The notes under the pieces were generated by a model. The model did not search any database and was not told the DNA's origin. It saw only the letters and a program-made list of their open reading frames with translations. DNA of 26,896 bases, from IMG/VR virus record IMGVR_UViG_2061766007_004337; one strand, given 5' to 3'. The translations under genes and the position numbers were made by a program. Source of the DNA: an uncultured virus (IMG/VR IMGVR_UViG_2061766007_004337). Taxonomy: Duplodnaviria; Heunggongvirae; Uroviricota; Caudoviricetes. Below, in pieces: positions 4,180-20,135 of the stretch (positions within the stretch are counted from its first letter, which is position 1; each line of letters opens with the position of its first letter).

Positions 4180-4255
4180 TTTCGTTCTCCTTTCCGAGGG
4201 CGGTGAAAAAACCCTCTACTTAATCGCGGTGGGAAAGGAAAAATAGGACGTTTTT

Positions 4256-4744
4256 TCAAAAATATTTTTTTATTTTTTTCAAAGCCCTCCGATAACGGTG
4301 AGAAACCGCGCTCTGATCTTCGTTATGCAGCCGGGCGTACTCTTTAATGGGAACCCCGTCCAAAGCCACCGTAATAACGAGATTTGCCGCGTCGGGCTTC
4401 AACACTTTACGGATGCGGCGGCAGGTCTCCTCGTAGTTGCGCTTCATCTCTTCGCCTTCTTCCTGGCGGGTGTCCGGGATCAGGTCGAAAAACGGGTCTT
4501 CATCATCGTCACCGGCAAGCGCAGACTCAGTGACATTGTGATCGTTGAATCTCCGGTCCTGATTTACTTCCGGGCGATTGATCTGCTCGTCCATGATCTC
4601 CTGCATGGAGCGTGGCGCTACGGATTCTTTGTCCTCAGCCGCGGCGAGGCGCATCTCATAGTCCGTGCGGATGGTTATTGCGCACTCCTCATCGGGAACG
4701 TCAAGCGTGGTGACCTGTCTCTCATAAACGATTCTGATTTTCAT
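4256..4744 (-). CDS. mobile-element sigma-70 region-4-like / sigma-like HTH protein
   Basis: 162 aa; C-terminal LKPDAANLVITVALDGVPIKEYARLHNEDQSAVSHRYRRALKKIKK fits a region-4 HTH; AAAGGAG RBS. Confidence 0.78.
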   Translation of the reverse strand: MKIRIVYERQVTTLDVPDEECAITIRTDYEMRLAAAEDKESVAPRSMQEIMDEQINRPEVNQDRRFNDHNVTESALAGDDDEDPFFDLIPDTRQEEGEEMKRNYEETCRRIRKVLKPDAANLVITVALDGVPIKEYARLHNEDQSAVSHRYRRALKKIKKYF

Positions 4745-4871
4745 TTCTGCAGCTCCTTTGGATTTTTGAAATCCGCAGAAGCTGCCGGGATCCGCAAAAG
4801 CAGACGACGGCCGGGATACAGCAAACCCTTACGGGGAATTACTGATCCTGGCCGTCGTGCAGCTCTGCGGA
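4745..4871 (-). promoter_or_regulatory. structured 5' leader (SD-sequestering hairpin plus alternative pairing) of the sigma-like gene
   Basis: Long hairpin 4791-4871 capped by CCC-GUAA-GGG; second hairpin 4749-4785 pairs GCAGCUUCU with AGGAGCUGC (the SD); conserved in the second copy 5088-5216. Confidence 0.65.
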
Positions 4872-4884
4872 CTCGGTTTTGTGT

Positions 4885-5034
4885 TTAGTTTGGGAAACTG
4901 TTCACGAGGAAACAGCCGGCGTCCGTCCGAACGAGCTCGGTATAGCTGCCTCGCGTGTCTATGGCGTATTTTCCGCCGGGGGGCAGGATGATGACCTCAA
5001 ACTCTCTGGAGTTCATCCGTTCGATTCTTCCGGT
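4885..5034 (-). CDS. 67-aa hypothetical protein, C-terminal fragment (variant)
   Basis: TGRIERMNSREFEVIILPPGGKYAID...NSFPN*; homologous to 5231-5434. Confidence 0.65.
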   Translation of the reverse strand, partial: TGRIERMNSREFEVIILPPGGKYAIDTRGSYTELVRTDAGCFLVNSFPN

Positions 5035-5044
5035 NNNNNNNNNN

Positions 5045-5087
5045 CAAGTGTGGTGACCTGTTTTTCATAAACGATTCTGATTTTCAT
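5045..5087 (-). CDS. sigma-like protein, N-terminal fragment (second variant)
   Basis: MKIRIVYEKQVTTL versus MKIRIVYERQVTTL at 4744. Confidence 0.7.
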
Positions 5088-5216
5088 TTCTGCAGCTCCT
5101 TTGGTTTTTTTGAAATCCGCAGAAGCTGCCGTGATCCGCAAAAGCAGACGACGACCGGGATACAGCAAACCCTTACAGGGAATTACTGGATCCTGGCCGT
5201 CGTGCAGCTCTGCGGA
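5088..5216 (-). promoter_or_regulatory. second variant of the sigma-gene structured leader
   Basis: Same stems as 4745-4871; substitutions include G-C to G-U changes. Confidence 0.62.
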
Positions 5217-5230
5217 TTTTGTTTTGTTAT

Positions 5231-5434
5231 TTAGTTGGGGAAACTGTTCACGAGGAAGCAGCCGGCGTCCGTCCGGACGAGCTCTGTATAGCTGCCTCGC
5301 TTATCTATGGCGTATTTGCCGCCTGGGGGAAGGATGATGACCTCAAACTCTCTGGAGTTCATCCGTTCGATTCTTCCGGTCAGACCGTCCGCCATGCAGA
5401 CGAGATGACCGAAGCAGTCTGTGATGCGTTCCAA
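5231..5434 (-). CDS. hypothetical protein (67 aa, TTG start)
   Basis: GGAGGT-AACA-TTG at 5434; ERITDCFGHLVCMADG...; the ORF-track start at 5494 lies inside a terminator stem, so it is unlikely. A variant N-terminus is at 5620-5670. Confidence 0.7.
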   Translation of the reverse strand: MERITDCFGHLVCMADGLTGRIERMNSREFEVIILPPGGKYAIDKRGSYTELVRTDAGCFLVNSFPN

Positions 5435-5446
5435 TGTTACCTCCGT

Positions 5447-5502
5447 AAAAAAAGGCCGGTATAAACATCCCTGATAATCCTCAGGAATGCTCATACCGGC
5501 CT
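5447..5502 (-). terminator. intrinsic terminator/attenuator, 22-bp stem
   Basis: AGGCCGGUAUGAGCAUUCCUGA-GGAUUA-UCAGGGAUGUUUAUACCGGCCU then a U-run; the three G-U pairs work only on the minus strand. Confidence 0.85.
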
Positions 5503-5681
5503 GATTCTGTATGATCGATCTGGCTCAATAAGAGCGGATATATTGTTTTTTGAGAGCGAGTCCCTGCGATCGCGGGTCTCTGCTTACGGCCGCTGCCGTT
5601 CAGCGGCTTNNNNNNNNNNGCCGTCCGCCATGCAGACGAGATGACCGCAGCAGTCTGTGATGCGTTCCAATGTTACCTCCG

Positions 5682-5741
5682 AAAAAAATAAAGGCCGGTA
5701 TAAACATCCCTGATGCTTTTCAGGAATGCTCATACCGGCCT
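5682..5741 (-). terminator. same terminator, second variant
   Basis: Identical 22-bp stem, different loop (AAAGCA), U-rich tail. Confidence 0.85.
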
Positions 5742-5822
5742 GATTCTGTGTGTCGATCTGGCTCAATAAGAGCGGGTATGCTGTTTACTTGAGAGCGAGT
5801 CCCTGCAATAGCGGGTCTCTGC

Positions 5823-6017
5823 TTATGGCCGCTGCCGTTCAGCGGCTTGGACCACCTCGGCAAACAGACAGTCCAGCGAGATCTCATCTGTCTTGTTCGT
5901 CCTGGGGTTTTTTACGCGGAGAGCGTGTGTTCCGTCCTCATGAAGCACCGCCTCTCCGATCGGGATCTTCAAGTTGGGAGTGTAGACGAACCCGGGGGAT
6001 AGTTTTTTCACTTCCAT
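5823..6017 (-). CDS. hypothetical protein (64 aa)
   Basis: AGAAGGAGC-ATG at 6017; MEVKKLSPGFVYTPNLKIPIGEAV...; variant fragments at 6302-6415 and 5584-5609 keep the same frame. Confidence 0.78.
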   Translation of the reverse strand: MEVKKLSPGFVYTPNLKIPIGEAVLHEDGTHALRVKNPRTNKTDEISLDCLFAEVVQAAERQRP

Positions 6018-6052
6018 GCTCCTTCTGAAATAATTGAATTCCGTTCTGCTAT

Positions 6053-6291
6053 TCACGTATACATCATACCCGGCATCCTCACCTTATCCCTTCCGTCACA
6101 AGGCATCTTTAGGTCTCCGAGAAGCACTGCATAGGTAACGGCGCGCTTTCCAAAGCGGGCGCGGAGAGCTTCGATCGTGTCATCCAGCTTCTCGCGCCGC
6201 TCGCGCTTCTCATTATCTACGAAGAAGGAAAGCTGCTCTGCCTCCGCTTTGGGCACGAGGTCTGTCGCCCGGATGCATACGGCTCTGACGT
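6053..6291 (-). CDS. dinB: Y-family DNA polymerase, C-terminal fragment (variant A)
   Basis: VRAVCIRATDLVPKAEAEQLSFF...RARFGK...MPGMMYT*; QLSFF is a beta-clamp-binding-like motif. Confidence 0.85.
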
Positions 6292-6301
6292 NNNNNNNNN
6301 N

Positions 6302-6415
6302 TGGGTTTTTTACGCGGAGAGCGTGCGTGCCGTCCTCGTGAACCACCGCCTCTCCGATTGGGATCTTTAATTTGGGGGTGTATACGAACCCGGGTGATAA
6401 ATTTTTCACGTCCAT
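6302..6415 (-). CDS. 64-aa hypothetical protein, N-terminal fragment (variant B)
   Basis: MDVKNLSPGFVYTPKLKIPIGEAVVHEDGTHALRVKNP. Confidence 0.72.
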
Positions 6416-6509
6416 GCTCCTTCTGAAAACTGATAATTCTGCGACCTGCTTATCACGTAAATCGGACTTCGGTCATCGGGTTTCTGCTCTTGCACCAACA
6501 CACCCCTCC

Positions 6510-7762: not shown

Positions 7763-8986
7763 CTATGTGTACATCATCCCCGGCATCCTCACCTTATCTC
7801 TTCCGTCACAGGGCATCTTTAGATCTCCCAAAAGCACAGCATAGGTTACGGCGCGCTTCCCGAAGCGGGCACGGAGGGCTTCGATCGTGTCGTCCAACTT
7901 CTCTCGCCGCTCATGCTTCTCATTGTCAACGAAAAAGGAAAGCTGCTCTGTCTCCGCTTTGGGTACGAGGTCTGTTGCCCGGATGCATACGGCTCTGACG
8001 TCTTTGTCCCACAGGTATCGCTCCTTGAAAAGGGCGAAGCCCGCCGCGGTGATTTCGCTCGGCGACTGTGTCCGAACCGGCAGCTTGCACTGCGCCTGCA
8101 TGCCGGAGAGGTCGTTTGTTCTGATCCAAATCTGGACGCCTCTGGCGGTGAGCCCGTGAAGGCGGAGCCTGTGGCCGACGTCCTGGGAGAGTTCAAACAT
8201 GACCTTATATACTTCCTCTTCATTTTTCAGATCGGCTGTGCAGGTGATCCCGTGGCCGACCGATTTGACAGGACTCACGAAATCCTTATGCATGACCCGC
8301 GACTGATCCGTTCCCGTAGCATACCGCCACAGCGCCAGACCGTTCACGCCGAACCAGGATCGCAGAAGCTCGGGCGGAGTTTCCGCGATCTGCCCAATCG
8401 TATGGATCCCATATTTTGAGAGCTTTGCCTCCGTCGCCGGCCCGACGTAGATCATGTCGGAAGCAGGGAGGGGCCATACCTTTTCCCGATAATTCTCCCG
8501 GGTAAACTCTGTCGTGGCATCCGGCTTTTTGTAGTCACTGCCCAGCTTTGCAAAGATCTTATTGAAGGAAACACCTACGGAAACTGTCAGGCCGAGCTCC
8601 TCGCGAGTGGCAGCGCGGATCTCCTCGGCGATCTTCTTTCCGGAACCGAACTGGTATTTTGAAGCGGTCACGTCGAGCCAGCACTCATCCATGCCGTAGG
8701 GCTCAACCATGTCGGTGTATCGGTAATAGATCTCGTGAGCCAGCCTGGAATACTTCAGGTACTCGTCATACTGGGGCGGGACCACGACCAGATCGGGGCA
8801 TCTCTGCCGCGCCTCCCAGTTGACCATCCCCGTCTTGACACCGGCCTTCTTTGCCAGCTGCGACTTGGCCAGGACGATCCCGTGACGGTTCTCCGTCGAC
8901 CCGCATACCGCGACAGGTTTTCCGCGGAGGCTTGGGTCAAGCATCATCTCGACCGAGGCATAGAAAGAGTTCATATCGCTATGCAA
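7763..8986 (-). CDS. dinB: Y-family DNA polymerase (DinB/UmuC-like), near complete (variant B)
   Basis: LHSDMNSFYASVE, AKKAGVKTGM, GMDECWLD, SVGVSFNKIFAKLGSDYKKPD, C-terminal QLSFF; only the first few codons fall in the gap. Confidence 0.95.
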   Translation of the reverse strand: MHSDMNSFYASVEMMLDPSLRGKPVAVCGSTENRHGIVLAKSQLAKKAGVKTGMVNWEARQRCPDLVVVPPQYDEYLKYSRLAHEIYYRYTDMVEPYGMDECWLDVTASKYQFGSGKKIAEEIRAATREELGLTVSVGVSFNKIFAKLGSDYKKPDATTEFTRENYREKVWPLPASDMIYVGPATEAKLSKYGIHTIGQIAETPPELLRSWFGVNGLALWRYATGTDQSRVMHKDFVSPVKSVGHGITCTADLKNEEEVYKVMFELSQDVGHRLRLHGLTARGVQIWIRTNDLSGMQAQCKLPVRTQSPSEITAAGFALFKERYLWDKDVRAVCIRATDLVPKAETEQLSFFVDNEKHERREKLDDTIEALRARFGKRAVTYAVLLGDLKMPCDGRDKVRMPGMMYT

Positions 8987-8996
8987 NNNNNNNNNN

Positions 8997-9968
8997 AGCG
9001 AAGCCTGCCGCTGTGATCTCGCTCGGCGACTGTGTTCGAACCGGCAGCTTGCACTGCGCCTGCATGCCGGAGAGGTCATTTGTTCTGATCCAAATCTGGA
9101 CGCCCCTGGCGGTGAGCCCATGAAGGCGGAGCCTGTGCCCGACGTCCTGGGAGAGTTCGAACATGACCTTATATACTTCCTCTTCATTTTTCAGGTCGGC
9201 TGTGCAGGTGATCCCGTGGCCGACCGATTTGACAGGGCTCACGAAGTCCTTATGCATGACGCGCGACTGATCTGTTCCCGTGGCATACCGCCAGAGCGCC
9301 AGACCGTTCACGCCGAACCAGGACCGCAGAAGCTCGGGCGGCGTTTCCGCGACCTGCCCGATCGTATGGATCCCGTATTTTGCGAGTTTCGCCTCTGTCG
9401 CCGGCCCGACGTAGATCATGTCGGAAGCAGGAAGGGGCCATACCTTTTCCCGGAAATTCTCCCGGGTAAACTCTGTCGTGGCATCAGGCTTCTTGTAGTC
9501 GCTGCCCAGCTTTGCAAAAATCTTGTTGAAGGAAACGCCTACGGAAACTGTCAGGCCGAGCTCCTCGCGAGTGGCAGCGCGGATCTCCTCGGCGATCTTC
9601 TTTCCAGAACCGAACTGGTATTCTGAAGCGGTCACATCGAGCCAGCACTCATCCATGCCAAAGGGCTCCACCATGTCGGTGTATCGGTAATAGATTTCGT
9701 GAGCAAGTTTGGAGTACTTGAGATATTCATCATACTGGGGAGGGATTACGACCAAATCGGGGCATCTCTGCCGCGCTTCCCAGTTGACCATACCCGTTTT
9801 GACTCCGGCCTTCTTTGCCAGTTGAGACTTGGCCAGGACGATCCCGTGACGGTTCTCCGTCGATCCGCATACAGCGACAGGCTTTCCGCGGAGGCTTGGA
9901 TCAAGCATCATCTCGACCGAGGCATAGAAAGAGTTCATATCGCTATGCAAAATCACTCTGTCTTCCAA
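8997..9968 (-). CDS. dinB: Y-family DNA polymerase, N-terminal part (other variant)
   Basis: Probable TTG start at 9968 after GGAGG (LEDRVILHSDMNSF...); mostly synonymous differences from 7763-8986. Confidence 0.92.
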
Positions 9969-10667: not shown

Positions 10668-11048
10668 TTACTCTTTCTTGCGGCCGAACTTAGCGCGGGC
10701 CTCTTCCTTGCAGGTGATGTACGCTTTCATCACCGCCTCAAAGAAGGCGTCCTTCTGCTCCTGAGACAGTTCGCCGCCGGCAAAGAGGGCTGCGTTGTCC
10801 TGCAGAAGGCGATCCACATCACGGGCTCCGGTATAACCGTACATCTGACGGGCCTCTTCCACGTAGTCATCCTTTTCGATATCGGCCAGCGGGTCAGTGC
10901 AGGTGTCGTCAAGCAGATAGGTAACGGAAACCTTCAGCGCCTTCGCCAGCTTTACGATCGTTCCTCTTCTGGCCTTGGCATCCTCTGATTCGTATGCGGC
11001 AACAGCGCGCTTGGAAATGCCCACGGCATCCGCGAGTTCCTGCTGTGT
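10668..11048 (-). CDS. XRE-family repressor, second variant (5' truncated, opposite orientation)
   Basis: TQQELADAVGISKRAVAAYESEDAKARRGTIVKLAKALKVSVTYLL...; C-terminus nearly identical to 10257-10491. Confidence 0.85.
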   Translation of the reverse strand, partial: TQQELADAVGISKRAVAAYESEDAKARRGTIVKLAKALKVSVTYLLDDTCTDPLADIEKDDYVEEARQMYGYTGARDVDRLLQDNAALFAGGELSQEQKDAFFEAVMKAYITCKEEARAKFGRKKE

Positions 11049-11071
11049 NNNNNNNNNNGGAGGGTTTGAGA

Positions 11072-11418
11072 TTGTCCTACACTGAAATTTGCAGGGCGGT
11101 CGAGGACGTACAGAAGAAGTACAATGAGCGTGATCCCTTCAAGCTTTGCAGGCTTATGGGTATCATCCTCATCTTCCAGTCATTAGGAACCGCCCCGGAT
11201 GCGATCAAAGGTTTTTTCCTTGAGAGCAAGCGTATCCGCACTATTACCGTCAATAGCGATTTACCCAGAGCGATTCAAAAAATCATTGTGGCTCATGAGC
11301 TTGGGCATGCCATCCTGCACCGCCGCAGCGGCATTGCCGCCTTCCATGAAATCGGTCTTTTTGATTCGAGTTCCAAAATGGAAAAGGACGCCAACCTTTT
11401 CGCCGCAGAGTATCTGCT
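11072..11418 (+). CDS. ImmA/IrrE-family (DUF955) metallopeptidase, 3' truncated
   Basis: GGAGG plus TTG start; ERDPFKLC, AHELGHAILH (HExxH), EKDANLFAAEYL. Confidence 0.92.
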
Positions 11419-11428
11419 NNNNNNNNNN

Positions 11429-11539
11429 TACCTCGTTCTCAACGGCAATCGTATCAATCGCTATCATGCTGCCATCGGTGAATTTCAGTTCCACACAGCA
11501 GTTATCCATATTGTAGGCACAAGATATTAAGGTTTTCAT
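11429..11539 (-). CDS. small mobile-element protein resembling DUF6061, N-terminal fragment
   Basis: GGAGG RBS; MKTLISCAYNMDNCCVELKFTDGSMIAIDTIAVENEV; family assignment from recall only. Confidence 0.55.
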
Positions 11540-11701: not shown

Positions 11702-11802
11702 TGACCCCATCTGGTTAACATAATTCGATGTTCGGCCCCATACCCTATCTACTTGACCCCACTTTGGCATGAGGCTGACCCCACTTTTCTGGGATGGGGT
11801 CA
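11702..11802. repeat. TGACCCCA iteron-like repeats
   Basis: Direct copies at 11702, 11754 and 11776 (the last two 22 bp apart); inverted copy at 11796-11802. Confidence 0.55.
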
Positions 11803-13472
11803 CTGTATCAAAATCAGGGTTATTTGCCAGAAAAAAAGGTGACGATTACATCAAGTTCCTGCTACGTAAATTCTCCCATAAGTCCATTTTTGAAAGCGTA
11901 TACGCATCCGCGGCTGATGCGGGTGATATGATTGACGGTTCGGAGCCGGATGATGATGAAGAGCCTGAACTTGAAGCAGAGCCAATCGAAACTGCCTCTG
12001 GAGAGTTTCTTAGACCTGTTGAAATCGCGGACTATGTCAACAGCTTAAACGAAACAGCTGAATACTGGTACTATACGTTCTACCCTGAAGAGTGCAGCGG
12101 GCTCAGCATGGAAGAAAAGATTTGGCTTGGAAGGCTGAACCGTATTGGAATCGGATATTTCAGACCCATTGTCGCGGTTTCTCTGATTCCCGATGTGGGG
12201 GTTTCCAAGGCAGAGCGAGTTGCCTTTTTCAGAGCGGTCGAGCGGTTTATCTTCATTAATTTCCGAATGGCTATGTATCAGTCCAGCTATTTGAGCAGCG
12301 ACTACTACAGAAAGACTCGGGAACTGTATCGACAGGAAATCACCATTCCGGAAATCACCGAAGCGTTGAACAGCAAAACTGACCAGAACGCTCCCGATGC
12401 GATCAAGGTCTTTGTCACAAGAATGAACCGCAGGTTCATTTCTGCGGATGGTTTTTATAGCTGGCGAGATCTGAGGTATTTCCTTTACGAATACGAATTT
12501 ACGCTTGCCGAAAAGCACAAAATTGAAAAGCTGGACTGGGCAGTGCTCACGAAGGTTGTCAAAGACAGACTAACCGTCGAGCACATTCTTCCGCAGACGC
12601 CGACGAAACTTTACTGGCGCAACCAGTTTAGACAGTTCACAGCAGAGGAGATAAAAACACTATCAGCTTCTCTGGGCAATCTTTTGCCATTATCCCAAAG
12701 CATCAATTCCGGGCTTCAGAATGACAGCTTTGATGACAAGAAAACTCGCGGGTATTCAAATGGATGTCATTCTGAGATTGAGGTTTCAAAAGAGCCCAAC
12801 TGGGATGCTCAGCACATTTATGAGCGCGGTATGAAGCTCCTCAGGTTCATGGAACAGCGTTGGGGATTCATGTTTGAAAACGAAGATCAAATGGAGGAAC
12901 TCCTTCATATCAGTTTCGTTAACGATGGGCGGGAGATACCGGAAGAGATTCTTAAAGAAGCAACTCCGGAGACCACCCCCGACATAGAGAAAAACAGAGC
13001 AATACCGCAGGACATAAGGCTGAAGTATTGGACATACGCCCTTCCTCTAATCAGAGAAGCGCATGGTGGATCAGGTCACCCGTACGGCAACGTAAACCCA
13101 AGTAATTCAAATTACAAAGACGGATTCTTTGGTATCCCGGGTATCCATCTTTACTGTTCGGTAAGGATGAAGCCAAAAGGTTGTGGGGCTAGCCTGTGGA
13201 TAGATACTGGCAAGCAAGAAACCAGTAAAGCGATGTTTGACCTTTTATACGCTCGAAAGGATACGATTGAACGTAAGATGTCGATGCCCTTAATCTGGAA
13301 CAGGAACAATGACAGCAGGGCATGCAGCATCAATATCACATTGGATGGGGCAGACTTTACAAGTGAAGCTGAATGGCCAGAAATTGCGGCGTTCCACGCG
13401 AGTATGACAAAAGAGCTTGCGGACAATGTCGTCTATCCGTATGAGGAAGCAATCCGAGCTATAATCCGGTGA
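11769..13472 (+). pseudogene. GmrSD-like (DUF262-DUF1524-DUF4268) restriction endonuclease lacking its N-terminal domain
   Basis: HNH/DUF1524 motif LTVEHILPQ...LGNLLPLSQSINSGLQN; DUF4268-like C-terminus; no DGQQR (DUF262) motif; the first ~20 codons run through the repeat region. Confidence 0.72.
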
Positions 13473-17409: not shown

Positions 17410-17988
17410 TTACAGTCTTCTTACTCCAGCTTTTCGAGCCGCCCGGTATAACGTGCTCTCACTTATTCCGTGCCGGGCAGCTGCTTCTTTATACGTCATT
17501 CGTTCCAGATCCTCCAGCGCCGCAACGATCTGCACTTTGGGTGTCGGCTTACGTCCATCCCTGTAATCCGGATCAGTCTTGCGCTTATACGCACGACCGC
17601 CTTGGCACCGTTCAACAATCAGATCGCGTTCCATTTCAGCGAACGCAAGGAACACCTGTAGTATCGCCTTGCCTGTAGCATTACTGATATCAATGATCCC
17701 GACGTTCATGATATTGACAGTGACCCCTGCATCAACCATCCTCTTGACGGTCTGATAGCCTTCAATGCTGGTGCGGCCAATCCGATCCAACTTGGTCACT
17801 ATGACCGTATCCCCCGGCTGAAGCACATCCATCAGCTTATCAAATTCAGGACGATCCATTTTCGTTCCGGTATATACATCCTTAAAAACCTTCTTGCATC
17901 CATTTTTCTTCAGGATCATTTCCTGTTCCTCAAGACTTGTGCCTTGGATCTGTATCTTTGTCGAAACCCTTGCATAACCATATATCAT
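17410..17988 (-). CDS. small serine recombinase (resolvase/invertase family)
   Basis: YGYARVST catalytic motif, VTKLDRIGR, FAEMERDLIVER, C-terminal HTH; GAGGTG RBS. Confidence 0.95.
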   Translation of the reverse strand: MIYGYARVSTKIQIQGTSLEEQEMILKKNGCKKVFKDVYTGTKMDRPEFDKLMDVLQPGDTVIVTKLDRIGRTSIEGYQTVKRMVDAGVTVNIMNVGIIDISNATGKAILQVFLAFAEMERDLIVERCQGGRAYKRKTDPDYRDGRKPTPKVQIVAALEDLERMTYKEAAARHGISESTLYRAARKAGVRRL

Positions 17989-18092: not shown

Positions 18093-18255
18093 ACAAACGC
18101 TATAACAACATAAACTGCAACTCTTTATTTTTCATATTTTCCACCCGGTCAGAAGAACGCCTAACGGCGTCTCCGGGTGCAAATGTGAGGATTGTTTTTT
18201 TCTGTAAAGCACTTTGAGGATGGAAAACAAGACCAATGAGAAGGAGGGTAGCATA

Positions 18256-18996
18256 ATGAGCGCAACATGTGAACAGCTTACCTTTATTAGCGAGACACAG
18301 CAGCAAGAGCAACGCCGCCAGACTCTGCGCCTGCGTGAACGACTGATGTCTGAACACAGTTTTGAGTCATTTGATGATGAAGAAATCCTGTCAACAGTTC
18401 TCTCCTATGGCGGATCCAAAGATAATTCTTTGCTCATACAACGCCTCATGGACACTTTCGGTTCTCTGAAAGGTGTGCTGGAAGCCACAGCTGACCACCT
18501 CCTGCGTGTTGAAGGTATGACGAAGACTAAAGCAGGCTTGATCTGTTTAATGATACCCATGTGCCGTGCATGGCAACGATGTACCATGCAGACACCGAAG
18601 CGCATTGGCAACAGCCGCGAAGCAGAAACCTTCTGCAAGTCGTTGCTGATTGGCGAACGCATTGAAAAGTTCTATGTTGTAGGACTGAATGCGCAATGTC
18701 AGATACTCGGAGTTAGAAAGGTTTCAGACGGATCACTAAACGAAACATCAGCTTATCCACGTAGAGTCGCTGAAATTTCTCTCTTGTTGAATAGTCATAG
18801 CGTGCTCCTATGTCACGGGCATCCCGGATGTACATGCGCGCCTTCACCTGAAGATATCAGCTCCACAATTCAGCTGCAACGCCTACTCAATGGGCTTGGT
18901 ATCTTACTGTTAGATCATATTATTGTCTGTGGTGACAACTGTTATAGCATGGTAACCCACGGTGACATAGATTATCGCGTTAAAGGGGTGAGATAA
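18256..18996 (+). CDS. radC: RadC-family JAB-domain protein
   Basis: AAGGAGG plus ATG; HhH-like FGSLKGVLEA...VEGM; EKFYVVGLN, HGHPG...PSPED, LLDHIIV. Confidence 0.9.
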   Translation: MSATCEQLTFISETQQQEQRRQTLRLRERLMSEHSFESFDDEEILSTVLSYGGSKDNSLLIQRLMDTFGSLKGVLEATADHLLRVEGMTKTKAGLICLMIPMCRAWQRCTMQTPKRIGNSREAETFCKSLLIGERIEKFYVVGLNAQCQILGVRKVSDGSLNETSAYPRRVAEISLLLNSHSVLLCHGHPGCTCAPSPEDISSTIQLQRLLNGLGILLLDHIIVCGDNCYSMVTHGDIDYRVKGVR

Positions 18997-19391
18997 ATGA
19001 ACAGGCAACACAATAACTCTACCGCAGAAACGTTAAAACTCCTCGAACAAGGCATCAAGTCGCTGGTCAACTCCGACGCCTACAAAACGTATCTGAAAAT
19101 CATGTCCCGCTTCCATTCTTACAGCTTCGGCAATTGTATTTTGATCATGCTTCAATGCCCGACCGCCACCCGCGTTGCCGGTTACCGCACCTGGCAACAG
19201 AAATTTCACCGGCAGGTCAGAAAAAATTCCCACGCAATCAGGATCATCTCACCCTGTTTCTGTGAAAAAGAGCTGCCAGATGGAACCACTGTCACGCAAA
19301 CGTATTTCAAAGCAACATCCGTCTTTGATATTGAGCAGACAGACTCCCTCGACGGGGAAGAATTCCCCGAAGTCTGCCATCAGCTCACTGG
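18997..19391 (+). CDS. ArdC-like ssDNA-binding domain (DUF1738), N-terminal fragment
   Basis: YLKIMSRFHSYSFGNCILIMLQCPTATRVAGYRTWQ...RQVRK...VFDIEQT; starts immediately after the radC stop. Confidence 0.9.
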
Positions 19392-19401
19392 NNNNNNNNN
19401 N

Positions 19402-19795
19402 AGGATAATCACGGAAAAACAACGACACAGGAAACGTTAAAGCTACTCGAAGAAGGTATCAAATCGCTGGTCAACTCCGATACCTACAAAACGTATCTCA
19501 AAATCATGTCTCGCTTCCACAATTATTCTTTCGGAAACTGTATCCTGATCATGCTTCAGTGTCCGACCGCCACCCACGTTGCCGGTTACCGTGCCTGGCA
19601 ACAGAAATTCCGGCGGCAGGTTCGTAGAAATTCCCAGTCAATCCGGATCATCTCACCGTGCATCGTTGAAAAAGAGCTGCCAGACGGAACCACTGTCACG
19701 CAAACGTATTTTAAGGCAACATCCGTCTTCGATATCGAACAGACTGACTCCCTCGACGGGGAAGAATTCCCCGAAGTCTGCCATCAGCTCACTGG
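19402..19795 (+). CDS. ArdC-like N-terminal fragment, second variant
   Basis: TQETLKLLEEGIKSL...FHNYSFGN...; start lost in the gap. Confidence 0.85.
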
Positions 19796-19805
19796 NNNNN
19801 NNNNN

Positions 19806-20135
19806 CGCTTTTACCTTATTGCGCTGAACGCACAATGCCGTGTGCTTGGTAAACGATGCATCAGTACCGGCAGTTTAGCAGAAGTCAACGCATATCCCAG
19901 AATCTGTATCGAAAGTGCCATTTCATACAATGCACACTCCGTGCTCCTATGTCACTCGCATCCAGGGCTTACGTGTGCTCCATCACCTGAGGATATTTCC
20001 TCCACCATACAGCTGCAAAGACTGCTTAACGGCATTGGTATCTTACTTTTAGACCATGTCATAGTTAGTGGTGACAATACCTATTCACTTGTCCAGCATG
20101 GTGACATAGATTATCGCGTAAAGGGGCTGAGATAA
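19806..20135 (+). CDS. radC: RadC JAB domain, C-terminal fragment of a more diverged variant
   Basis: RFYLIALNAQCRVLG...HSHPGLTCAPSPED...LLDHVIV; again abuts an ardC-like start (TAA-ATG). Confidence 0.88.
   Translation, partial: RFYLIALNAQCRVLGKRCISTGSLAEVNAYPRICIESAISYNAHSVLLCHSHPGLTCAPSPEDISSTIQLQRLLNGIGILLLDHVIVSGDNTYSLVQHGDIDYRVKGLR

Follow-up and report, generated by a model that had tools for sequence, protein, structure and literature searches.

The 26,896-nt sequence of an uncultured virus of the Caudoviricetes (IMG/VR record IMGVR_UViG_2061766007_004337, hereafter the window) raises the question of how an RNA leader of ~130 nt, located between a small-protein gene and a gene for a helix-turn-helix (HTH) protein resembling region 4 of sigma factors, may govern expression of the latter. 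Positions are those of the window, and the leader, the small open reading frame (ORF) and the gated gene are all on the minus strand. Four segments of the leader carry the argument (Table 1). The 5´ strand, A, can pair with B, forming the closing helix P1 of a long hairpin (P2/P3), or with C, an anti-Shine-Dalgarno strand that otherwise pairs with D, the Shine-Dalgarno (SD) sequence of the HTH gene. An earlier note on this locus had proposed these segments and pairings, and all four strands are present on the minus strand where it had placed them. The RNA from 4735 to 4890 folded with a minimum free energy (MFE) of -73.9 kcal/mol (z score -9.62), and none of 200 shuffled sequences was as stable. 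The MFE fold combines the long hairpin closed by A:B with a hairpin that pairs C with the SD; A and C are complementary over 13 pairs with one bulge. What the note had observed is therefore real and lies far beyond chance.

Related leaders were found in other phages and in bacterial genomes. A blastn search (distant setting) of 50,697 phage records gave a single match, in an intergenic and unannotated part of Streptococcus phage Javan191, that is confined to the leader (4871-4767, 75.9% identity). Only two records of a phage GenBank collection matched, Javan191 and an unannotated faecal phage, and a plasmid collection contained no leader match. Viral contigs and a set with a single genome for each species were scanned with exact patterns; after removal of two false positives (L177 and L197), 49 distinct true leaders remained, and these were used to build a covariance model (CM) of 135 positions and 43 pairs. 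A pattern for the C-D end alone retrieved 103 loci, and the CM detected the motif in 42 of the 100 of these that were searched. When an alignment of 10 closer sequences was used as the query, 10 loci were returned, three of them new, and the CM matched five of 150 sampled Clostridia species genomes, the starting genome included. Finally, a joint CM search of 93 sources produced 92 matches in viral contigs and in genomes of Bacillota, of which 72 were distinct. Most sequences were found by patterns taken from A or C-D, and the conservation of those strands is inflated accordingly. Named hosts include Listeria costaricensis, Selenomonas ruminantium, Oribacterium, Blautia, Intestinimonas, Terrilactibacillus, Amphibacillus and Sporanaerobium, joined by many metagenome-assembled genomes of Oscillospiraceae and Lachnospiraceae. 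In agreement with the earlier note, which did not recognize a named RNA family, Rfam 15 at the gathering score gave no match in the whole window or in eight homologous loci (86,948 bases), and at E<=10 only chance-level matches were seen (mir-1271 with 18.6 versus 80.5 bits and YrlB with 19.7 versus 97 bits). Literature searches by conserved 13-mers, which returned unrelated papers only, and by concept found no description of the element.

The helices of the leader are supported by compensatory changes. Structure statistics were calculated for the 72 distinct sequences with slid partners and 500 shuffles as controls; the alignment was fitted to the closed-state model, which favors the closed state. 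In this state (A:B, P2/P3 and C:D), 88.7% of the alignment cells were paired compared to 37-52% for slid partners, and 28 pairs had changed on both sides, which was seen in 0/500 shuffles. A structured RNA leader, as suggested from the single sequence, is supported. The SD hairpin C:D, also proposed on that basis, was paired in 89.7% of cells and showed both-sided changes in nine of its 11 pairs, as expected for a conserved SD-burying hairpin. For A:B, 93.6% of cells were paired (28-58% for slid partners), with five pairs and 21 cells changed on both sides (0/500 shuffles). For the 13 pairs of A:C, the corresponding value was 96.5% (22-46% for slid partners), with both-sided changes in three pairs and three cells; no shuffle among the 500 reached this pair count and one reached the cell count. 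Among the distinct homologues, the 5´ arm can thus pair with both of the partners that the earlier note had named.

More cells were paired in A:C than in A:B, yet both strands of A:C are nearly invariant. Informative changes in A:C were seen in some leaders. In one (L340), a C-G pair of A:C, at a position that is a mismatch in A:B, is replaced by U-A through a double change; in another (L352), a C inserted in A is matched by a G inserted in C; and in several leaders a U-G pair of A:C has become C-G. A:C pairing was also broken down by how the sequences were found. It amounted to 98.6% in leaders found through A, where C was free to vary, 93.6% in leaders found through C-D, where A was free to vary, and 86.2% in five leaders found by protein or model search. 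A was canonical in nine of the 22 distinct leaders that were not found through A. In the first leader alignment (A2), the AGGAG of D is invariant, and so is the GCGG of C, though these sequences were found through A only; the RNAalifold consensus of this alignment takes A:C. Within C, CUGCGGA is invariant even though most of it has no partner in the closed fold. Sense-strand CM scores were 51-123 bits, compared to at most 45 bits for the reverse strand in the run that listed reverse-strand matches. Given these scores and the frequent G-U pairs, the structure belongs to the transcribed strand. The element defines a new family of leader RNAs, conserved and strand-specific, in temperate phages of Bacillota.

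Which of the folds prevails was examined by folding 49 leaders, 12 nt of coding sequence being included in each case. The MFE structure contained A:B in 43 of the 49, and at least four of the five SD positions were paired in 47. The best fold with a free SD used A:C in 32 leaders. The probability of a free SD ranged from 4e-11 to 0.135 across the 49, with 4.7e-7 for the leader of the window (copy 1) and 2.5e-4 for the variant copy in the same record (copy 2, discussed below). Given the dominance of the SD-closed fold, the leader is at equilibrium not bistable, and the bistability proposed in the earlier note is not supported. A different picture was obtained for incomplete transcripts. When the RNA ended just after C, A:C was the MFE fold in 65 of 70 leaders, with a median advantage of 5.75 kcal/mol; A:C is favored only before the SD is transcribed. 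The predicted minimum accordingly passes from A:B to A:C, and then to A:B together with C:D, as the RNA grows. Direct-path barriers from findpath, which are rough upper bounds, were ~12.6 kcal/mol (range 9.7-16.7) from A:B to A:C in the prefix and ~12.9 kcal/mol from A:C back to the closed state. The unaided RNA most likely goes straight to the closed fold. Judging from the height of the barrier, A:C could, once formed, last about as long as an mRNA.

We propose, with moderate confidence, that the leader is a cis-acting translational gate that is OFF by default and has a conserved alternative helix through which a trans-acting factor can open it. By default, A would zip onto B and lengthen the long hairpin, and C would pair with D, such that the ribosome-binding site (RBS) is buried and the regulator is not translated. 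B would serve as a decoy partner that keeps A off C. If A:C, the longer and better helix, formed in vivo instead of A:B, D would be freed and translation could start. Since B is transcribed before C and the closed fold is the global minimum, opening needs a trigger, which would act by blocking B or the formation of A:B, or by stabilizing A:C; B and the internal loop (U-rich plus CUGCA) are candidate sites. We infer that the trigger is a trans-acting factor, with the co-encoded small protein as the first candidate. This protein is an obvious choice because it is the first product of the shared unit and shows strict co-conservation with the leader, RNA binding by it being putative. As to an antisense RNA, which the earlier note had listed as another possible setter, no promoter-like sites for one were found near the leader in the window.

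Matches to a hidden Markov model (HMM) of the small protein were detected upstream of 51 of the 53 distinct leaders with at least 230 nt of upstream sequence, and the two loci missed have a shorter ORF of ~50 aa with, by eye, the same N-terminal pattern. The protein is ~69 aa long, with the consensus MEEIRDCxGRLACxGDAxTG... and, in most members, an Ala-Ala C-terminus, which we take to resemble a C-terminal degradation tag. C13 is the only nearly invariant cysteine; C7 is common. The protein has no Pfam, NCBIfam or PHROG family (for Pfam, the window's protein was tested at E<=0.01 and three others at E<=0.1, and none matched). It falls into 173 clusters, all unnamed or hypothetical, and a protein atlas search returned hypothetical clusters only. 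The predicted model is all-beta with seven strands (pLDDT 93.6). A CsrA or Hfq fold was considered and was absent among the structural matches.

We tentatively extend the proposed gate to a two-part timer composed of the small protein and the leader, an idea we regard as somewhat unlikely. The protein, translated first from the same transcript, would bind the nascent leader at the invariant 5´ strand, the internal loop or B, whereupon A:C would form, the regulator would be made and the replication module would then be licensed.

The 3´ end of the small ORF has structure of its own. The Ala-Ala codons are usually one arm of a hairpin adjoining the stop codon, and a hairpin centered on a conserved Phe codon was seen in the last ~45 nt of the ORF in homologous loci such as L002, L007, L010 and L161. 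Compared with synonymous recodings, the 3´ hairpin of the small ORF showed a modest excess (14 of 43 in the 5% tail, median z -1.2), and the window copies were not significant. RNAalifold on a MAFFT alignment of the upstream 100 nt gave no consensus in this region.

The leader may act on transcription as well. In 67 of the 72 leaders, at least five of the 8 nt that follow the long hairpin's 3´ arm are U, and the stem is unusually long, at ~20 pairs. This U tract and the long stem make partial termination before the regulator gene likely in most members, least convincingly in the window. In most members, some of the transcripts probably end at the long hairpin and its U-rich tail, which would thereby also limit transcription of the regulator gene. 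A simple terminator scanner did not call the long hairpin in the window or in L002, where bulges break up the predicted stems. A role of C:D as a further intrinsic terminator was rejected as a family-wide feature, a run of at least four U between SD and ATG being present in only 25 of 71 leaders and absent in the window. Apart from the leader, many homologous loci contain, at 60-100 nt before the small ORF, a similar terminator-like hairpin with a U run, followed by a second inverted repeat; the one in the window is listed in Table 1.

Several observations weigh against a gate that can be opened. The closed fold is favored, the best SD-free fold costing +0.6 to +14.9 kcal/mol more, and because of the barrier of ~12.6 kcal/mol between A:B and A:C, the latter may never form unaided. 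Covariation in A:C is thin, at three cells, and the finding of sequences through patterns in A or C-D inflates the conservation of exactly the strands in question. Recognition of a repeated word by a protein or in DNA could also keep near-invariant A and C complementary. No known RNA-binding fold was recognized in the small protein, for which Foldseek gave nothing at E<=0.001 and the best Z was 4.3. The U tract of the window copies themselves is poor, with 4/8 U (GUCUGCUU). Lastly, contigs from RNA runs (X15 and X16; 151 nt) match the regulator ORF and the small-ORF variant, and reach the leader only via a loose-ended piece of 34 nt.

Some of these observations would fit a fixed attenuator or insulator with no switch, in which the U-tract hairpin terminates most transcripts and C:D permanently damps translation. 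The regulator would then be kept at a low, constant ratio to the small protein, and A:C would be functionless, with B and C merely similar words that match A. The closed fold is indeed dominant at equilibrium in nearly all members, the barriers to A:C are high, the U tract is widespread and A:C has few doubly changed cells. We nevertheless find a fixed element unlikely. CUGCGGA of C is invariant though mostly unpaired in the closed fold, A:C remains paired when either strand was free to vary, and the C-G to U-A change and the paired insertion are specific to A:C; in addition, with probabilities of a free SD of 1e-4 to 1e-10, permanent closure would leave the gene almost silent. The earlier note had also named the upstream ribosome as a possible setter of the switch: termination or stalling at the stop codon of the small ORF would hold A open and decide between A:B and A:C. 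The stop in the window is 12-13 nt from A, and hairpins surround the stop and the 3´ end of the ORF in many members, as might suit such a role. A terminating ribosome protects ~10 nt beyond the stop. Among the 49 leaders, the distance from stop to A is 9-34 nt, mostly ~20-25 nt, which is too far and too variable for a terminating ribosome and would in most cases leave A untouched. Moreover, neither C nor the SD would become free if A were blocked. We would hardly expect the ribosome to be the trigger.

Three further explanations were considered. The long near-perfect duplex could be an RNase III processing site or mRNA-stability site that separates the small-ORF and regulator messages. RNase III processing has precedent in the early transcripts of lambda N and T7, and a duplex of ~20-25 bp with a conserved internal loop would be in keeping with it; such a site leaves both the B/C duality and the covariation of the SD hairpin unexplained and is very improbable. 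The least probable explanation in our judgment is that A, B and C are operator half-sites in DNA (ATCCGCAG and inverted copies) for a DNA-binding protein, for example the HTH regulator itself. An 8-9-nt word is indeed present in three nearly invariant copies, but the helices tolerate G-U and not the equivalent C-A (G-U occurs in 37 cases at one A:B pair and in 10 at A1:C), the opposite strand gives much lower CM scores, and P2/P3 and C:D covary with free sequence. Finally, the leader, with its conserved 5´ strand and hairpin, and the small protein could form a two-part module for processive antitermination, comparable to conAn of pLS20 or put of HK022, which would modify RNA polymerase in cis and allow read-through of terminators in a long early/replication operon. 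The unusually strong conservation of primary sequence and the terminator-like hairpins before and within the cassette point in this direction, as does the gene order: a long operon in a Gram-positive mobile element begins with a small gene, behind which comes a conserved RNA with structure. This layout resembles conAn1 plus conAn2 (PMC8191782). According to the same source, however, ConAn1 belongs to PF17362, whereas the small protein has no Pfam match, and conAn2 is ~300 nt long with other features (PMC8191782). The covarying SD occlusion, moreover, indicates translational control, and we consider antitermination distinctly unlikely. We retain the default-OFF translational gate as our preferred reading of the leader.

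A second leader is present in the record at 5085-5217, with A, B, C and D identical to those of copy 1 and stem changes from G-C to G-U. The RNA of this variant copy folded with -66.5 kcal/mol (z -7.92). The identical segments and G-C to G-U changes that the earlier note had pointed out in this copy are thus there, but it cannot serve as an independent repeat. The copy lies between N gaps, within a contig placed in the scaffold (Table 1). Contigs of four public runs were compared with window positions 4200-5900, and one contig each from the DNA runs X1 and X6 joins 5034 to 5620 with three letters between, skipping 585 bases. X1 and X6 are possibly the source of the assembly and for that reason are not independent evidence; they still show one copy in read-assembled DNA. 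Based on the N-gap borders and the X1 and X6 contigs, the second copy belongs to a variant contig that was put in by scaffolding, and the two copies do not stand in tandem in a single genome. The second copy is usable as a natural variant and is no evidence for duplication. The window contains 32 N runs, mostly 10 long. Elsewhere in it, stretches that are 83-97% identical are found side by side between N gaps (for example 8034-8333 and 8998-9297, 6057-6291 and 7767-8001, 5905-6030 and 6303-6428); doubled Y-family polymerase genes are among these paired stretches, and apparent duplications in the window are untrustworthy. The exact 735-bp stretch 4300-5034 is complete in 14 DNA runs from several studies of animal gut or faecal samples (with labels that include pig, bovine and goat). 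The element is common in such samples, with some of the 14 runs possibly being the source of the assembly.

The proposed gate can be compared with known systems. The ermC leader, the maturation-gene leader of phage MS2 and the hok mRNA are three-strand translational switches built from SD, anti-SD and anti-anti-SD strands. In these and in the leader described here, mutually exclusive helices gate the RBS, and the fold at the time of transcription differs from that at equilibrium. Unlike these switches, the leader has no leader peptide overlapping the strands, the upstream ORF ending 9-34 nt before A, and there is no sequence or Rfam relation to them. In phage Mu, Com, a four-cysteine zinc finger, activates translation of mom. 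Here, too, a small protein is encoded directly upstream of a gene with a hairpin-locked translation start; unlike Com, it is predicted to be a seven-strand all-beta protein and has one near-invariant cysteine, and its RNA binding is only putative.

The closest published analogue is cATT, a zipper-type transcriptional attenuator from plasmid pLS20 (Gonzalez-Alvarez et al., NAR 2026, PMC13401043). As described there, cATT and our leader have in common a long imperfect central stem-loop and a 5´ flank that is complementary to the 5´ arm of the next hairpin (PMC13401043). In both, zipping of the long stem can prevent the next hairpin, with A:C as the helix concerned here (96.5% paired and taken by the RNAalifold consensus). 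The 5´ flank is the most conserved part in each case, and each element is at the head of a long operon in a Gram-positive mobile element. The same report presents the downstream hairpin of cATT as an intrinsic terminator and the open (antiterminator) form as the default, whereas the hairpin of our leader hides the SD and the closed form is the default. Compared with cATT as it is described there, our leader also has an extra decoy strand, B, that takes A first. In that description, cATT is upstream of conAn1 in a conjugation operon; our leader is found with a prophage replication module (in 5/5 genomes and the window) and without a PF17362 match. The bipartite processive antitermination system conAn (Miguel-Arribas et al., NAR 2021, PMC8191782) likewise opens a long operon of a mobile element with a protein gene and, after it, a structured RNA that acts in cis. 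It differs in that ConAn1 carries PF17362 (pXO2-34), for which the small protein, lacking any Pfam match, offers no counterpart, and in that the ~300-nt conAn2 has a GC-rich box and SL1 (PMC8191782), whereas our leader overlaps the RBS.

The gated gene encodes a 162-aa protein with a C-terminal sigma-70-region-4-like HTH (Table 1). It matches phrog_11138 (1.5e-19) and phrog_1740, annotated as 'RNA polymerase sigma factor' (2.8e-6). Matches to Sigma70_r4_2 (PF08281; E 2.3e-3, 18 versus 25.7 bits) and TIGR02937 (4e-6, 26.6 versus 42.9 bits, residues 67-161) are below the curated cut-offs. Since the matches are of the region-4 type only and all below curated cut-offs, the protein should not be called a sigma factor. 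Among eight homologous downstream proteins, the best family was region 4 in four and another HTH in two, with nothing relevant in the remaining two, and the downstream proteins vary in their N-terminal halves. In one locus (L146, JAAYUE010000017.1), the region-4-like ORF continues for >366 aa into sequence that, by eye, resembles the N-terminus of a serine recombinase.

In the window, the gated gene is followed on the same strand by a 65-aa ORF and then by Siphovirus Gp157, AAA_24, WYL/WCX and SNF2-type helicase genes; Y-family polymerase genes and an HTH_3 gene lie upstream. From this gene content, the locus is taken to be a prophage early/replication region. The cassette of small ORF, leader and regulator gene heads a phage replication module in 5/5 genomes examined, which is either of the DUF2800 nuclease, Enc34-type single-stranded DNA-binding protein and family A polymerase type or of the SNF2 helicase, DUF7307 and polymerase type. 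In four of the five genomes (L354-L357, G001-G004), hsdM/hsdS type I restriction-modification genes lie immediately before the cassette, and two of these genomes also have an ISL3-like transposase; in Javan191 (L001), annotated methyltransferase genes are found upstream of the cassette. Elsewhere in the scaffold (10668-11530, 11769-13472, 17410-17988 and 18214-20135) there are other mobile-element genes: an HTH_3 plus M78 peptidase pair, a GmrSD-like nuclease with DUF4268, a small resolvase, and RadC and ArdC-N genes (twice).

Table 1. Features of the leader locus, in the order of transcription on the minus strand, with the scaffold insert last (window positions)
Feature	Position	Strand	Basis and remarks
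Terminator-like hairpin, 20 pairs plus U run	5693..5740 (variant copy 5454-5501)	-	directly 5´ of the small ORF, 3-10 nt before its SD
Small ORF, 5´ part, TTG start 5670-5668 behind GGAGG	5620..5670	-	start modelled on the variant copy 5234-5434 and homologues
Small ORF, 3´ part, with stop 4887-4885	4885..5034	-	continues at 5620-5670 once the insert is removed (X1/X6 join)
Upstream stop codon TAA	4887-4885	-	read from the sequence; spacer to A is 12-13 nt
Segment A, (G)UCCGCAGAGCUGC	4859..4872 (UCCGCAGAGCUGC = 4871-4859)	-	most conserved strand; pairs with B or C
Long hairpin P2/P3, GUAA-type apical loop	4802..4858	-	predicted fold; helices 2-4 covary
Segment B, GCUUUUGCGGA	4791..4801	-	3´ strand of closing helix P1 (A:B) of the long hairpin
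Segment C, GCAGCUUCUGCGGA	4772..4785	-	anti-SD strand; 5´ half pairs with D, whole segment complementary to A
Small apical helix	between C and D	-	predicted fold
Segment D, Shine-Dalgarno AGGAGCUGC	4749..4757	-	pairs with C in the dominant fold
ATG of the gated 162-aa ORF	4744-4742	-	read from the sequence
Gated gene, 162-aa protein with C-terminal sigma-70-region-4-like HTH, no region 2	4256..4744	-	ORF, profile searches
Scaffold insert, not real tandem DNA	5035..5619		two 10-N gaps around a 90-96% variant contig (5045-5609)
Leader variant and small-ORF variant (5231-5434) inside the inserted contig	5085-5217, 5231-5434	-	sequence comparison

As a candidate new family of cis-regulatory RNAs, the leader is well supported: 72 distinct sequences belong to it, each helix of the closed state shows covariation, and Rfam has no match for it. 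The leader also flags two co-travelling protein families that are unstudied, the ~69-aa all-beta protein and the region-4-only HTH proteins. The zipper-like logic seen here, with a decoy, an anti-SD and a shared 5´ strand arranged around a long hairpin, would, if applied to translation, widen the known use of this principle. If the tentative two-part timer were true, it would represent a type of feed-forward commitment gate that has not been described in phages of Gram-positive bacteria, operated by a protein family without a known fold relative. In the temperate phages of gut and other Bacillota, the leader is located at a decision point, before the first regulator gene that precedes the replication genes.

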